From: Octopus vulgaris
Taxonomy: Eukaryota
Direction: 5' to 3'
Length of the DNA: 64,000 bases
Assembly (NCBI GenBank): GCA_951406725.2
Contig: OX597828.1
Coordinates: 57,350,001-57,414,000, forward strand
Part shown: positions 25,996 through 59,767 of the stretch, in pieces
How the letters are laid out: every line of letters begins with the position of its first letter
Numbering within the stretch: position 1 is the stretch's first letter
Position numbers and translations under genes: made by a program
The notes under the pieces: generated by a model
Database searches by the model: none
What the model saw: only the letters and a program-made list of their open reading frames with translations
Told to the model about the DNA's origin: nothing

Positions 25996-27186
25996 TTACT
26001 CCATTGGAGAAAACAACAAAGACGTGAATGATATTGAAATTATTACCAAGACTGCAATAATAAGTTTTAAAAATATCGCATCCAGTTGTATATAGTCAAT
26101 AATGAAATTTCTCTTTTTCTTACACGGGAGACCACCTTTCATTAAAATTTCGGAATGGTCCGTAGAAATAATTGAAATATCCGCAACTTTGTTTCTCTGT
26201 AATTTCTCTCTACTTTCCTCTGTTAATTTCAACTTATTTTCTTGTGATGATTGATTAACATACAGCTTGCTTATAACCACCGATCCAAGTGTGGCGATGC
26301 CACTTACCATTGACAACACCATTAAATATAAAATAAGCAGTGAAGGATATTTTGAATTAGCTGGTGTATTCTTATCCATTTGAACAAGATACAAGATATT
26401 TGATAAAAATATTGTTGTTGCTAGAGAAACTTTCTCACCTGATTCAGGAGGCAGAAGAAATACAAAAACTGTTAAAATAGTCATCATTACTGTCGGAATT
26501 AGCATAGCTATGATACCGACTGTGAGTTTACGTCGTAAATATACTGTGCCCACTACGTAAGAACTGTAGGTTTCCTGATCGCTAATACTCATATACCATT
26601 TATAATTTTCTTCGTTGGAGTACACATATAACGCAAATGATGTTAAATTTACATCATTATTATTATACGTTGCACTACACAGGCGAATTTCACATTTGTG
26701 TTCATCGAATGGATAGCTGTAAGCATTCACTTGACAATAAGTTTGTAGTAATGTAAATGATACCATTGTCAAGAACCCAGTGTAAGAAATGCGAATATCG
26801 TCCAAGCTATCTTTATCTTCTGATTGTGTCAATGAATTGCACATTACTAAATTTGGATTCCATAATTTCTTTTTTGGTACAAATATATATGTAATGTTGT
26901 TATAGTCCAAAGGGTTCCAGTTAAGATTTTCATCAGTCCAAAATGAAGAAATGATGTAGCGAGCCGTTAGTAAGTTATTTACAAAGTCCAAATCATAGAG
27001 GGTGTAAAGTGTCGTAAAAATACCTATGTTAACTGTTGTCGACAAATTCATAACGGGTTTTATATCATTGCGATAATTTGACAACAGACTATCTTTCAAT
27101 AATCTTTCGTCATTGTGCGTAGCATCGGAATTTACGATCGATATAATTGAGCAAAGAGCATAAATAAAACACTCTGTGAGCAACAT
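25996..27186 (-). CDS. Atypical nicotinic-acetylcholine-receptor-like Cys-loop channel subunit (cephalopod chemotactile-receptor-like), 396 aa, uninterrupted CDS
   Basis: Signal peptide; LL..Y....RP-like N-terminal helix; WTD..L.W.P; W.P; Cys-loop CQVNAYSYPFDEHKC (C-x13-C); M1-PESGEK-M2 with 9'Leu; M3; short cytoplasmic loop; M4 (LDAIF). No loop-C CC. Confidence 0.93.
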   Translation of the reverse strand: MLLTECFIYALCSIISIVNSDATHNDERLLKDSLLSNYRNDIKPVMNLSTTVNIGIFTTLYTLYDLDFVNNLLTARYIISSFWTDENLNWNPLDYNNITYIFVPKKKLWNPNLVMCNSLTQSEDKDSLDDIRISYTGFLTMVSFTLLQTYCQVNAYSYPFDEHKCEIRLCSATYNNNDVNLTSFALYVYSNEENYKWYMSISDQETYSSYVVGTVYLRRKLTVGIIAMLIPTVMMTILTVFVFLLPPESGEKVSLATTIFLSNILYLVQMDKNTPANSKYPSLLILYLMVLSMVSGIATLGSVVISKLYVNQSSQENKLKLTEESREKLQRNKVADISIISTDHSEILMKGGLPCKKKRNFIIDYIQLDAIFLKLIIAVLVIISISFTSLLFSPME

Positions 27187-27789
27187 TTTCTCCTACATTG
27201 AACATTTAAATCATCCTAATGTTTTTCTGTAAATGTTTTCATGTGAATATGAAATTGAGGAAATCTCAAAAATTTAGCTCGGATATGATTCTTGTTGAAT
27301 GAATAATGTTATTGACACAGCATGACACTGTAAAGATAGACAACGAAAGTCCATTTTCCTGTGAAACGATGTTTCGCACAATTCGCAATGTATAAGATTT
27401 ACTATTTATAGAAAAGTACTGTACGTTAGCAAACATAGGGAAAATATAATTTTGCCATTAGAAATGTTATTCTGATTGATTAGTTCCATAAAAATTCCAT
27501 AAAAGTTCTATTTAGACATACATTTCTTTGCTTTGACTAGTCATTTTAACCTATTCATTTATCCTCGCTTAGTTCATTGGATTAAGATCGTGATGCGCTT
27601 ATGGATATTATTTCACTTCTCAAATATTTTTAATTACCTTGGTAACTTTATATCATACGTTGTAATTCTTTTTTTTCGATTGCTCCAGCGAAAGCCACAC
27701 TTTCGAATGTTTTGCTTTGATGTAATTCAAGGAAATTGCAGATTGCCGAATAATTTGCAACTGATTAACTGACAGGATGAATCAGGAAC

Positions 27790-27800
27790 CTGAAAAAGTT
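27790..27800 (-). promoter_or_regulatory. Conserved TTTCAG motif (candidate 3' splice acceptor of a 5'-UTR intron)
   Basis: The same motif and context (TTTCAG-RTT-SCTGA) lies about 570-600 nt upstream of all three ATGs (27790, 43144, 60362). Confidence 0.45.
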
Positions 27801-28081
27801 CAGTGATATGTTATATAATCGAAAACAAAATTTAAGTGAAACAAGTTCAAATGCTAGTTTAATGAGAGGCTGCAAACACATTATTATGACAGAACACATA
27901 CCGGGGCTGAAAGTCGTAGCGCAAAATTAAATATTAAAGACGAGGGGCTACTTTATAAAACATAAAATTTTCAAATTTAATAAGAAAGTATGAACTTCAT
28001 CTCATTTATTGACGCTGATATAAATGTTTTTTTCATGATATGCTTTTTAGTTGATGTCAAAAATATTTTGTGCAAAAATAT

Positions 28082-56869: not shown

Positions 56870-57225
56870 AGTTGAGTTCTTAAACTTACAGCCGCCACCA
56901 AAAGCTCCACCTCATTGGCTTCCATGCAACCTTTCTCAACCAAAGATGTGTAATGGCACAAGACTTGTTGTAAATGAATTAATGAGAAGTATCATACAGG
57001 CCACAAAAATGTCTGGCTGTGCAAGAAATGTTTATACCACACAGTTCATTAACAAGTCCTAAGGACAGAGTTTGCGAGTTACAGGCTTGCAATTAGAAAA
57101 CGACTGTTTCTCACACGATCAGTTATATGTTGGGACATCCAGTGTGAGGGGCAAGAACGATCTTTTCATTTTTACCCCTACTGGTAAAACCCCGAAACAT
57201 TGTCTATACAGACGTTTTTACCATG
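56870..57225 (+). mobile_element. Helitron PIF1-helicase C-terminal relic
   Basis: Translates, with frameshifts, to FLN.....[25 protein letters not shown]...CFSH.QLYV..S, NIVY..V. Confidence 0.8.
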
Positions 57226-58564
57226 AGATCAAGAAACTAAAATTTTAAGAATGATTATTAACTTGGAACTGATATTGTCAACGTCACACTATCTTCGTTT
57301 CACAAAAGTTATGTGTACGTTTGTTTGTTGTAATAGTTAAGTCCAATAAATTATACGACATATGTTTTTAGTTTTCCCCGAACATTTCTTTACTTATCTT
57401 GTACTAGACATAAGCCAAAGTCTCTGCAATGTTTGCTTCATTTATAGACTGAAATACTACAGATCATAGATCAGACGTTTATGTACACCCATGATAATAC
57501 TGGCCAGAAGAAAAGAGCTCTATTGTCTACATGAAAGTTAACAACTATTTCATATATATATATTAGATGCAATTATAACTGAATAAATTTCAATATTCAT
57601 AGTATTCATATATATATATATATATATATATATATATATATATATATTTCAAGAGTTCTTGCTCCTTCTTCAGTACCTCATCCTACACATCGAAATATTA
57701 TCGAAGGTTAAAAAATTGATAATGATTGTATATACATATTGAAGTCTTATAAGCCTTTTATATACTTTGTAGTATATATTCTATATATACTGTGATTTGA
57801 GTATGCATGTGTATATTTATATGCGTATATGTGTATGTACTTTATGTAAGCAGGGGTGATAGTTGATGACTGTTTGTTATATGAGTTTTGTGGTGGGAGA
57901 ATTCGTTTGCCTCACTCATTAAGGTGACGATAAATTACTACGGTTTTGTTCACTTCAATTACAATATCTGGTTTCAATTAAAATCCATCAAAATGTAGTT
58001 GTACCTGGATAGACACAGATATTTTTATATATACCAAATGTTATGGTTTGGTCCATATATGTACCAAAGAAACTATTTAAAATGTCATGAGATGGAAATC
58101 TCAAAACAGCAGACATAATAATCTTTGATACTCCACGACATCACTTTGATATTCTGAAGAGGAGTTCATTAAAGGCTTGTGCATTTTCATACAACCCAAT
58201 GCATTCCTATTTGTTGCAGCAGAGAAATAATCTTGAACATATAATTCATAAATATCGCTGATCAGATTGTCTGTTTTACGCCAATAAATCTTACGTGAAA
58301 TGTCATACATGTCTTCAATTATGAAAATGTTTGCTATCAGTCTTGAAATTCAAATTCCAGCATTATTTGCGTAAACCTTAACTCACTCCATTAATACTTT
58401 TTTTTTTATTAAAGACCAAAGTTTTCGTGTGGATTGCACCATCTTTAAAGAAATACTGAGCCAACATTAAATGTTCTGTTATTCCCCCTGGACGAACGTA
58501 GCATTTCACAGATCATATACTAGGTTTCCAGAGAAATATTTTGAAATAAATATTGTTGAACTTG

Positions 58565-59767
58565 TTACTCCAGTGGTGTAAATAACAAAGTGGTAAATAA
58601 TATTGAAAATATAATCGATATAACAATACCAATTTTCAAGAATATGGCATCCAGTCTTACGTAGTCGGAGATACAATTTCTCTTTTTCTTACTTTGAAGT
58701 TCCTCTGCAATTAGAGATTCGGATTTTACCGTGGAAATCATTGAAATATCTGCAACGTTCTTACTTTGAGATTTGTTTTTGTTGAGGTCTGTCGAAACCG
58801 ATTTCTTTTCCCTAGATGACCGATTAATATACAACTTGCTTATAACCACCGATCCAAGCGTGACGATACCACTTAACATTGACAATAACATTAAATACAA
58901 CATGAGAAGTGAAGGATATCTTGAATTTTTTGGTGTATTCTTATCGATTTCGACAAGATATAAAACGTTTGATAAAAATATGGTCGTGGCTAGAGAAACT
59001 TTCTCTCCTGATTCAGGCGGAAGAACAAATACGAAAATGGTTAAAATAGTCATCATTACAGTCGGAATCAGCATAGCTATGATTCCTATCGTAGGTTTTC
59101 GTTGGAGATACATCACCGCAGCTGCCTGACTACCCTCATCATTTTCTGCAGATACCACTCCAAACATGTTGACATCCCACTTGTAGTTTTCTGTAACATT
59201 TAGATTTTTGTAATACATTGTTTGTATTCTCGTTTGACGAATAGAATGCACAGCAACGCACATATGTATTTCGCATCTATGCTCATCAAATGGATACGTA
59301 TAAGCGTTCACTTGGCAATAGGTCTCTATGTACTTAAGAGACCACATCTCGACAGTTCCATCATGATAAATCTTGACTTCTTGATCGGTATTGGCATCAC
59401 CTGGTTCATTCACTGAATTACACATTATAAGAGATGGGGTCCATATTTCATGTCTTGGCAGATTTATTTCTGTAATGTTGTTATAGTCCGATGGTTTCCA
59501 GATTAGATATGCGTCGATCCAATATGGCGCAATCATATACCGAGCCATGAGTATGTTATTTACGAAGTCCAAATCATAGAGTGTGTGAAGATCCAAATCA
59601 GTATATATATCGACAGAAGTGATCAAATTAATAACAGGTCTTATATCTTTTCTGTAATTCAACAGCAGGTTGTCTTTCAATCGTATTTCATCCTCGTGCG
59701 TCGGAAGAGATTTTACTGTTAATATAATCGAAGTCAAACTGAAAACAAAATATGTTATGAACATCAT
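58565..59767 (-). CDS. Atypical nAChR-like Cys-loop channel subunit (chemotactile-receptor-like), 400 aa, uninterrupted CDS
   Basis: First ATG at 59767 (the track start at 59773 is TTG). Signal peptide, CQVNAYTYPFDEHRC, PESGEKVSLATTIFLSNVLYLVE, four TMs, no vicinal cysteines. Closest to the 41374-42576 gene. Confidence 0.93.
   Translation of the reverse strand: MMFITYFVFSLTSIILTVKSLPTHEDEIRLKDNLLLNYRKDIRPVINLITSVDIYTDLDLHTLYDLDFVNNILMARYMIAPYWIDAYLIWKPSDYNNITEINLPRHEIWTPSLIMCNSVNEPGDANTDQEVKIYHDGTVEMWSLKYIETYCQVNAYTYPFDEHRCEIHMCVAVHSIRQTRIQTMYYKNLNVTENYKWDVNMFGVVSAENDEGSQAAAVMYLQRKPTIGIIAMLIPTVMMTILTIFVFVLPPESGEKVSLATTIFLSNVLYLVEIDKNTPKNSRYPSLLMLYLMLLSMLSGIVTLGSVVISKLYINRSSREKKSVSTDLNKNKSQSKNVADISMISTVKSESLIAEELQSKKKRNCISDYVRLDAIFLKIGIVISIIFSILFTTLLFTPLE

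Follow-up and report, generated by a model that had tools for sequence, protein, structure and literature searches.

Among the described systems the closest to the locus reported here is CRT1 of Octopus bimaculoides (PDB 8EIS, 9E6B; UniProt A0A0L8FVQ9), a chemotactile receptor (CR) for progesterone and norharmane. In the CRT1 papers the subunits form ligand-gated cation channels in the sucker epithelium with a flat inter-subunit pocket that binds poorly soluble molecules, and the vestibule residue E104 tunes calcium flow. Traits of the CR family include expression enriched in that epithelium, gating by molecules of the environment, and insensitivity to acetylcholine. In the accessible portions of the published sources CRT1, CR840 (chloroquine being one of its agonists), and squid CRB1 are the only receptors with a named ligand, and the O. 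bimaculoides family is given as 26 members. That the pockets diversify while the cation pore is conserved was the conclusion of the CRT1 work and has since been tested with 235 receptors of about 30 species; positively selected CR sites were concentrated in the pocket (PMC11526382), and two preprints are at odds on Y58 and F124, assigned to positive selection in one and to purifying selection in the other. The principle of a variable pocket and a conserved pore in CRs is already published, together with site-level selection tests.

In the window, which is the whole 64,000-nucleotide stretch of Octopus vulgaris DNA that was analysed, four same-strand CR copies were found by tblastn within 57 kb (Table 1). 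Three of them, genes 1–3, are very probably tandemly duplicated octopus CR subunits of the CRT1 clade with divergent pockets and a shared gate. CRs serve taste by touch and descend from acetylcholine receptors. The preliminary description had placed them at 25996..59767, and this span is exact, from the stop of gene 1 to the ATG of gene 3. In all three a single frame covers the coding region from the signal peptide to the stop, an intronless CDS being a trait of cephalopod chemotactile receptors (PMC13174522). Pfam domains PF02931 and PF02932 scored above cut-off in 3/3 genes, and the identity to CRT1 was 56–60% (gene 3 at 60%). PDB sequence search returned CRT1 with E 1.3e-134 for gene 1 and 3.7e-139 for gene 2, while the best canonical receptors for these two genes reached only 1e-29 to 1e-32. 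Structure prediction and fold search, run on gene 1, gave a model with pLDDT 81.6 and CRT1 8EIS as its top fold match (rmsd 2.3 A over 287 columns). The window genes have the pentameric-channel fold and intact intronless frames, and the gene 2 protein is identical to P0004 of the protein collection. Clustering is said, in the 2015 work of Albertin, to be a defining trait of the CR family. A search for CR loci in metagenomes produced 105 pattern matches, of which 0 were confirmed.

Table 1. Positions of the CR copies and of their main features in the window
Feature	Position	Strand	Description
Fourth copy, 5'-truncated	2952..3414	-	Only the part from M2 to the stop, a 154-codon open frame; tblastn
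Gene 1	25996..27186	-	Intronless CR CDS, 396 aa, single ORF
Gene 1 M1-M2 linker and M2 (to 20')	26371..26451	-	17' Gln; motif position, prime table
Gene 1 loop C (beta9-beta10)	26533..26598	-	22 residues vs 26 in CRT1; coordinates computed from residue numbers
Gene 1 C118 (Y93 position) to C172 (G147 position)	26677..26841	-	Putative second disulfide; coordinates computed from residue numbers
Gene 2	41374..42576	-	Intronless CR CDS, 400 aa, single ORF
Gene 2 M1-M2 linker and M2	41749..41829	-	17' Gln; pore-facing residues as in gene 1 and CRT1
Gene 3	58565..59767	-	Intronless CR CDS, 400 aa, single ORF
Gene 3 M1-M2 linker and M2	58940..59020	-	17' Glu; motif position, prime table
Gene 3 beta1 Asp pair	59591..59599	-	CRT1 pocket positions 37 and 39; coordinates computed from residue numbers

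According to FastTree on 43 proteins the octopus CR clade including CRT1 had a support of 0.845, and the wider CR clade, apart from canonical nicotinic receptors, 0.981. All three window genes fell among the Octopus CRs and paired one-to-one with O. bimaculoides proteins: P0037/P0016 (XP_014779524.1) and P0007 (XP_052829359.1) are the orthologues of genes 1 and 3, and P0005 (XP_052829360.1) is the nearest protein to gene 2. The partners lie on a contig whose length equals that of the CRT1 record, their database names are generic receptor names, and the ectodomain identities to them are 163/199, 155/203, and 177/203 for genes 1, 2, and 3, respectively. Genes 2 and 3 are clearly nearer to each other than either is to gene 1, whose ectodomain is the most divergent of the three. 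CRT1 itself groups with P0010 and P0011 and not with the window genes; this tree place, together with the loss of Y39, Y58, W122, F124, S169, and F192 as a set, ruled out a CRT1 orthologue. CR840 might be one of the window genes.

The fourth copy is probably a pseudogene, and no ectodomain or M1 belonging to it was found within the 64-kb window. It is identical at 126/154 residues to its O. bimaculoides partner P0024 (XP_014786443.1), which, unlike the truncated copy, is a whole protein of 403 residues. The truncation junction was seen as a loose end in 3/4 sequencing runs, and the truncated copy is common to related species.

The residues of the canonical ligand pocket were numbered as in mature human alpha1 via the 9gu0_A alignment (in gene 1, with an offset of 25, Y93 is C118, G147 is C172, W149 is A174, and position 55 is I80). 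It had been proposed that loop A Tyr93 is replaced by Cys and loop B Trp149 by Ala in all three genes, that loop D position 55 is I, L, and M in genes 1, 2, and 3, and that loop C lacks the YxCC motif; each of these readings was borne out by the alignment, where the first three positions are Tyr, Trp, and Trp in 6/6 canonical receptors. The stretch from the beta9 Trp to the pre-M1 Arg comprises 22, 26, and 26 residues in genes 1, 2, and 3 versus 30–32 in the six canonical receptors. Retention of the aromatic box at shifted positions was also checked, and the alignment places it neither at its own nor at shifted positions, which indicates that the acetylcholine box is lost in genes 1–3. The aromatics substituting for it in CRT1 (Y58, W122, F124, F192) are kept only as F124 in gene 1 and only as W122 in genes 2 and 3.

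Nicotinic alpha subunits (human alpha1, alpha7) share with the window genes the Cys loop, the fold, the GEK ring, and 9' Leu; however, the identity is about 20%, Y93, W149, Y190-x-C-C, and the loop D Trp are replaced in the window genes, and their loop C is 6–10 residues shorter. A nicotinic alpha subunit was ruled out as an assignment, the loop C vicinal cysteines and Y93, W149, and Y190 being missing. Squid CRB1 (PDB 8EIZ), the third-best PDB match (E 1e-41 and 5e-36), also has the GEK ring and lacks vicinal cysteines in the printed alignment but differs by its identity of about 26% and by a Tyr at the Y93 position without Cys, being far more distant than CRT1. The latter resembles the window genes in fold, in the pore-facing M2 residues, and in having Cys96, Cys150, Ala152, and no YxCC, but it is non-orthologous and has a loop C four residues longer than that of gene 1.

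The Cys at the Y93 position is accompanied by a loop B Cys at the G147 position in all three window genes, and among the 43 aligned rows both are present in 32, neither in 11, and a single one in 0. This pattern suggests that the Cys replacing Tyr93 most likely forms a bond with the position-147 Cys, bracing the pocket floor; the corresponding Cys96-Cys150 bond may well be modelled in the CRT1 structure 8EIS. A search of the accessible literature found no printed account of this pair or of the cluster, which says nothing for their novelty.

As to the pore, M2 residues -1'E, 0'K, 2'S, 6'T, 9'L, 13'L, 16'V, and 20'K are the same in genes 1–3, the pore-facing set being as in CRT1, and the prime table agrees with the earlier statement that the three genes retain -1' Glu and 9' Leu; the 20' position is Lys in the window genes versus Asp or Glu in 6/6 canonical rows. 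By its residues (GEK ring, 9' Leu) M2 reads as cation-type in genes 1–3. The description of M1-M3 as "nearly identical" amounts to 73–76/87 residues shared by the pairs (84–87%), with 70/87 positions identical in all three, compared with 78/203 in the ectodomain (87, 90, and 122 of 203 for the pairs). The "conserved cation channel" holds for M2 of these three genes, but in the vestibule the E104 position of CRT1 is D/N/D in genes 1/2/3, within a loop that has 0/11 positions in common. Elsewhere in the family -1' Lys with 2' Phe occurs in 3/37 CR rows, one paralogue clade, that of P0043, being without -1' Glu.

The domains also differ in their rate of change. For the window gene pairs dN/dS was 0.44–0.51 in the ectodomain and 0.15–0.22 in M1-M3, so that uniformity across domains, which was checked, was not found; the bootstrap share with ectodomain dN/dS at or below that of M1-M3 was 0.063, 0.000, and 0.004, and Fisher tests on non-synonymous differences gave p 2e-15, 2e-16, and 4e-8 for three pairs that are non-independent. 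A domain-wide dN/dS above 1 was not seen among the three genes. M1-M3 is under strong purifying selection, and the loops differ between paralogues at a near-silent rate, with a ratio of pooled-loop pN to gene-wide pS of 0.74–1.08 (0.33–0.42 for the rest of the ectodomain and 0.15–0.17 for M1-M3). In canonical receptors the two domains contrast little: insect alpha3/alpha4 share 169/203 ectodomain and 73/87 M1-M3 residues, and the remaining 14 pairs 30–38% and 34–49%, respectively. With loop boundaries of our own in CRT1 numbering, the proposed strong divergence of loops C, D, and F was confirmed (3/25, 4/11, and 2/15 positions identical in all three genes), but it is not peculiar to them, loop E (2/18), the omega loop (0/11), and the M3-M4 loop (22/60) being equally variable; loop B has 4/15 and M4 15/29. 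Two candidate observations were set aside: that loop D changes faster between orthologues than the M3-M4 loop does (37/55 vs 235/296 identical, p 0.054) was not established, and an origin of gene 1 loop F by a compensated frameshift, suggested by the DNA alignment, gave p 0.044 against gene 2 and 0.56 against gene 3 in a region picked post hoc.

Pocket assignments rest on sequence alignment, and the register of gene 1 loop C is uncertain because of a four-residue gap. Of ten CRT1 pocket residues 1, 3, and 2 are retained in genes 1, 2, and 3; the window gene pairs share 0, 0, and 4 of 10, while orthologues share 41/50. In the preprint 10.1101/2025.10.28.685082 CRT1 L37A and Y39 substitutions alter responses, and Y39T, Y58V, W122L, F192V, S169A, and C150A show no response to either ligand (Fig S8 legend). 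Loop C of gene 1, whose region is modelled as two strands (199–208 and 212–221), is identical to its O. bimaculoides orthologue at 21/21 residues and to the paralogues at only 3–4/25, and it is shortened in 3/3 members of the gene 1 clade. The Asp pair of gene 3, which stands where CRT1 has Leu and Tyr, is present in 3/3 clade members (gene 3, P0007, P0009), and gene 3 of this species also has Glu191 in the pocket. Gene 1 would then have a rebuilt aromatic set (F37, F124, Y169, short loop C), gene 2 a mainly aliphatic pocket, and gene 3 one containing acidic residues; the shared gate may thus serve to read another class of chemicals in each gene, and a CRT1-like response to progesterone or norharmane would be expected from none. 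It is suggested only tentatively, and with more doubt than belief, that the gene 3 clade has an anionic pocket in which a salt bridge serves to sense cationic amines or alkaloids and that the gene 1 clade represents a third pocket type. Nicotinic receptors, in contrast, make cation-pi contacts with the ligand.

The divergence may be read in other ways. Compatible with tandem CR subunits of divergent pocket and shared gate, and possible although on balance unlikely, is that the window genes encode heteropentamer partners, whose M1-M3 is kept for co-assembly and whose divergent faces modify CRT1-type pockets or ion flow rather than act as lone sensors. CRs do form homo- and heteropentamers (PMC11526382), the sex-steroid response was confined to CRT1 among five CRs screened, and the likeness of M1-M3 and the change in loops D, E, and F of the complementary face and in the omega loop are as such partners would have them; however, loop C of the principal face is also rebuilt in a clade-specific manner.

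Gene conversion among the tandem copies, which would homogenise M1-M3 and make the pore look more invariant, is improbable and not supported. Between genes 1 and 2, silent third positions differ at 10/67 sites in M1-M3 vs 25/77 in the ectodomain (p 0.019 uncorrected, one of three pairs), and site patterns favour a grouping of genes 2 and 3 in the ectodomain (140:58:46) and are even in M1-M3 (20:15:17; p 0.03). However, no significant drop is seen in the remaining two pairs (p 0.17, 1.0), run tests covering 75 polymorphic silent codons gave p 0.50–0.88, and no identical stretch exceeds 29 nt. The M1-M3 protein tree still pairs each gene with its O. bimaculoides partner, albeit with weak support (0.72–0.86), and therefore no conversion is seen since that split, while an older one may have occurred.

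Relaxed constraint, that is, near-neutral loop drift after loss of acetylcholine binding without tuning of the paralogues to different ligands, is very improbable: it draws on a loop pN near but not clearly above the silent rate, on an M3-M4 loop dN/dS (0.38–0.65) overlapping that of the ectodomain, and on pocket sites no better kept between orthologues than the M3-M4 loop (p 0.85), the last two also counting against the tandem-subunit reading, but it is opposed by gene 1 loop C, unchanged from its orthologue while the M3-M4 loop keeps 47/60, by the clade-wide Asp pair and short loop C, by diversifying selection at pocket sites in the published site tests, and by the differing agonists of CRT1 and CR840.

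In summary, the domain contrast in dN/dS and the loss of the acetylcholine box support the proposed diversification of ligand specificity on a conserved cation channel. The proposal is correct, but the literature on the family had already drawn it as its conclusion. The residue tables provide testable ligand guesses for three orphan receptors, and the analysis flags a probable second disulfide in place of the loop A tyrosine and points to a paralogue clade with a non-conserved pore. If the anionic pocket of gene 3 is true, amine sensing would have re-evolved in the octopus cluster by new chemistry, and ligand class would be predictable from about ten residues.

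The DNA of the window is of animal type, rich in AT and repeats, and its three minus-strand chemotactile receptor (CR) paralogues, genes 1, 2, and 3, all carry the Cys-loop channel ligand-binding and membrane domains (Pfam). PMC11526382 describes the CRs as cation channels in the arm suckers that assemble as homo- or heteropentamers, evolved from nicotinic receptors, and are gated by molecules of low solubility; they are also intronless (PMC13174522). The top solved relative was CRT1, the O. bimaculoides CR of structures 8EIS and 9E6B (E 3.7e-139 for gene 2 and 1.3e-134 for gene 1), followed by the squid sensory receptor CRB1 (8EIZ; 1e-41 and 5e-36, respectively) and by 5-HT3 and nicotinic receptors (1e-29 to 1e-32 for both genes). 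The identity to CRT1 is 56%, 56%, and 60% for genes 1, 2, and 3, and Octopus is the source of all named close homologues. The AlphaFold model, built for gene 1 only (mean pLDDT 81.6), also had its best match in CRT1 (E 3.8e-38, 287 columns, rmsd 2.3 A). The three genes belong to the octopus CR cluster as ordinary members.

Features of the window and their positions
Feature	Position	Strand	Length	Remark
Gene 1	25996-27186	minus	396 aa	unbroken frame, signal peptide to stop
Gene 2	41374-42576	minus	400 aa	unbroken frame, signal peptide to stop
Gene 3	58565-59767	minus	400 aa	unbroken frame, signal peptide to stop
Fourth CR copy	2952-3414	minus		5'-truncated, starts within M1-M2 linker
Alignable upstream regions, genes 2 and 3	42577-43019, 59768-60197		~430 bases	upstream of ATG
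Element upstream of genes 1 and 3	28077-28346, 60455-60725		270 bases	78% identical
Partial copies of the element	near 28340-28555 and 30200-30290
Broken frames between genes	3-1903, 5896-7657, 13544-14618, 36900-37590, 38449-38835, 40223-40648, 48806-49456, 9153-9473, 39480-39806
Gene 1 differences in X2 and X8	27023-27024, 26664, 26660, 26824, 26090			close relatives
Gene 1 loop F	~26600-26660

Genes 2 and 3 gave a single blastn match of 1689 columns (74%) over coding and upstream sequence, and this upstream alignability indicates that the duplicated unit takes in a candidate promoter or 5' untranslated region. The element shared upstream of genes 1 and 3 is probably a dispersed repeat. By eye, we take the intergenic broken frames to resemble non-LTR retroelement reverse transcriptases, a GIY-YIG-like nuclease, and mariner/Tc1-like transposases. 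The fourth copy keeps 154 codons of open frame and is 126/154 identical to its partner P0024. The 30 bases past its break were found as a loose end in sequencing runs X2, X4, and X8 of related organisms B, C, and D (with one mismatch in X8), which rules out an assembly error at the junction; organism E (run X17) has a 2529-base contig that runs on past the break in the manner of an intact gene.

The acetylcholine site of all three proteins is altered as the preliminary description had it by eye. Aligned to human alpha1, gene 1 places Cys118 at Tyr93, Cys172 at Gly147, Ala174 at Trp149, and Ile80 at position 55; in the multiple alignment Tyr93 is replaced by Cys and Trp149 by Ala in every one of the three genes, and loop D position 55 is I, L, and M in genes 1, 2, and 3, while six of six canonical receptors have Tyr, Trp, and Trp in these columns. 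Loop C lacks YxCC throughout and spans 22, 26, and 26 residues between two anchor residues (CRT1, 26; canonical receptors, 30-32); signature-motif loss and a short loop C agree with what PMC10338036 and PMC11536092 report for CRs. Unlike genes 1-3, CRT1 keeps an aromatic both in the column of canonical Trp55 and in that of the final aromatic of loop C. The cysteines at the Tyr93 and Gly147 positions occur together in 32 of 43 rows, are both absent from 11 (6 canonical and 5 CR-like), and never occur singly; in the tree P0017, which lacks both, belongs to a different clade from P0026/P0027/P0028, which also lack both. Judged from this alignment pattern, the pair likely forms a second disulfide; in 10.1101/2025.10.28.685082 C150A is reported to abolish the CRT1 response.

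The nearly invariant cation pore claimed earlier held for the M2 lining of the three genes, including -1' Glu and 9' Leu, but neither for the whole permeation path nor for the whole family. Eight of nine tabulated M2 positions (-1' to 20') are the same in genes 1-3 and in CRT1, and 17' is Q, Q, and E. Position 104, the omega-loop glutamate that tunes calcium flow in CRT1 (10.1101/2025.03.03.641191), is D, N, and D. The 37 CR and CR-like rows all have 9' Leu, 34 of them have -1' Glu, and in one clade (P0043, P0014, and P0019) -1' is Lys and 2' is Phe. This paralogue clade, P0043/P0022, P0014, and P0019, lies outside the window and, by its residues, may have changed selectivity or poor conductance.

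All three genes are identical at 70/87 positions of M1-M3 and at 78/203 of the ectodomain. Genes 2 and 3 are nearer each other (122/203 in the ectodomain) than to gene 1 (87/203 and 90/203). The strong differences described in loops C, D, and F were confirmed, but variability is wider: with loop boundaries of our own, the positions shared by all three are 2/18 in loop E, 0/11 in the omega loop, 4/15 in loop B, 22/60 in the M3-M4 loop, and 15/29 in M4. In the canonical control (15 pairs of six receptors) both domains are about equally conserved, with 169/203 and 73/87 for the ectodomain and M1-M3 of the insect pair; the remaining 14 pairs share 30-38% of the ectodomain and 34-49% of M1-M3. A three-indel compensated frameshift in gene 1 loop F relative to gene 2, considered from the DNA alignment, was unsupported.

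The proposed domain-partitioned comparison (Nei-Gojobori) gave dN/dS that was not uniform, 0.44, 0.51, and 0.51 in the ectodomain versus 0.22, 0.15, and 0.15 in M1-M3 for the three window pairs, which are non-independent and include values near saturation; the bootstrap share with the ectodomain at or below M1-M3 was 0.063, 0.000, and 0.004. Relative to the gene-wide silent rate, change was 0.74-1.08 in the pooled loops, 0.33-0.42 in the remaining ectodomain, and 0.15-0.17 in M1-M3. Since the M3-M4 loop dN/dS (0.38-0.65) is similar to that of the ectodomain, strong pore constraint with weak loop constraint, not positive selection, is indicated in these three genes.

A much less likely reading is that the loops simply drift without ligand tuning; over five orthologue pairs the pocket sites are as identical as the M3-M4 loop (41/50 and 235/296, p 0.85). 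However, between window paralogues only 0, 0, and 4 of ten pocket sites are identical, and gene 1 loop C matches its orthologue at 21/21 positions and its paralogues at 3-4/25, which favours tuning. Less probably, old gene conversion helps to keep the pores alike: silent third-position differences of genes 1 and 2 are 10/67 in M1-M3 versus 25/77 in the ectodomain (p 0.019 uncorrected), but the other two pairs gave p 0.17 and 1.0, p was 0.50-0.88 in run tests over 75 silent codons, each gene joins its O. bimaculoides partner in the whole-protein tree of 43 proteins, and ectodomain-only and M1-M3-only trees recover the same small clades (with weak M1-M3 support); purifying selection is the simpler cause of pore likeness.

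Gene 2 and P0005, its closest O. bimaculoides partner, share only 73/87 of M1-M3, compared with 81-87/87 in four other pairs; either this lineage changes faster or P0005 is no strict orthologue. In the close relatives gene 1 shows G57N on beta1 (two adjacent bases changed), N177D or H and N178S directly after loop B, I368T, and one silent change; four of the five ectodomain base changes among those listed (for X2, 7 of its 10 differences) alter a near-pocket residue.

In CRT1 orthosteric ligands rest on Y58, W122, F124, and F192 (10.1101/2025.03.03.641191), with further steroid contacts at L153, L191, and Y39, and mutants Y39T, Y58V, W122L, S169A, and F192V are described as unresponsive to progesterone or norharmane (10.1101/2025.10.28.685082). 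At ten contact positions drawn from both sources CRT1 reads L-Y-Y-W-F-V-L-S-L-F, gene 1 F-T-I-V-F-S-T-Y-Y-S (1/10 shared), gene 2 D-I-L-W-L-V-L-M-G-I (3/10), and gene 3 D-D-M-W-L-V-V-L-E-G (2/10); gene 1 naturally carries the Thr39 of the unresponsive Y39T mutant. From these residues genes 1-3 would not be CRT1-like steroid receptors, and each would sense a different, non-CRT1 ligand class through the same gate. Gene 3 Asp37 and Asp39 are retained in both other clade members, which suggests a cationic ligand; another CR, CR840, is reported to be gated by chloroquine.

The variable-pocket, conserved-pore pattern is real and already known: diversification of ligand specificity on a conserved cation channel was correctly read and matches published conclusions, where site models find many positively selected sites concentrated in the pocket (PMC11526382) and the channel architecture is conserved around a remodelled pocket (PMC13174522). 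The selection and modelling checks proposed for the window correspond to the MEME and FEL tests of 235 receptors and the AlphaFold3 consensus of the mating preprint (10.1101/2025.10.28.685082). The remaining value lies in predicting the ligands of genes 1 and 3.
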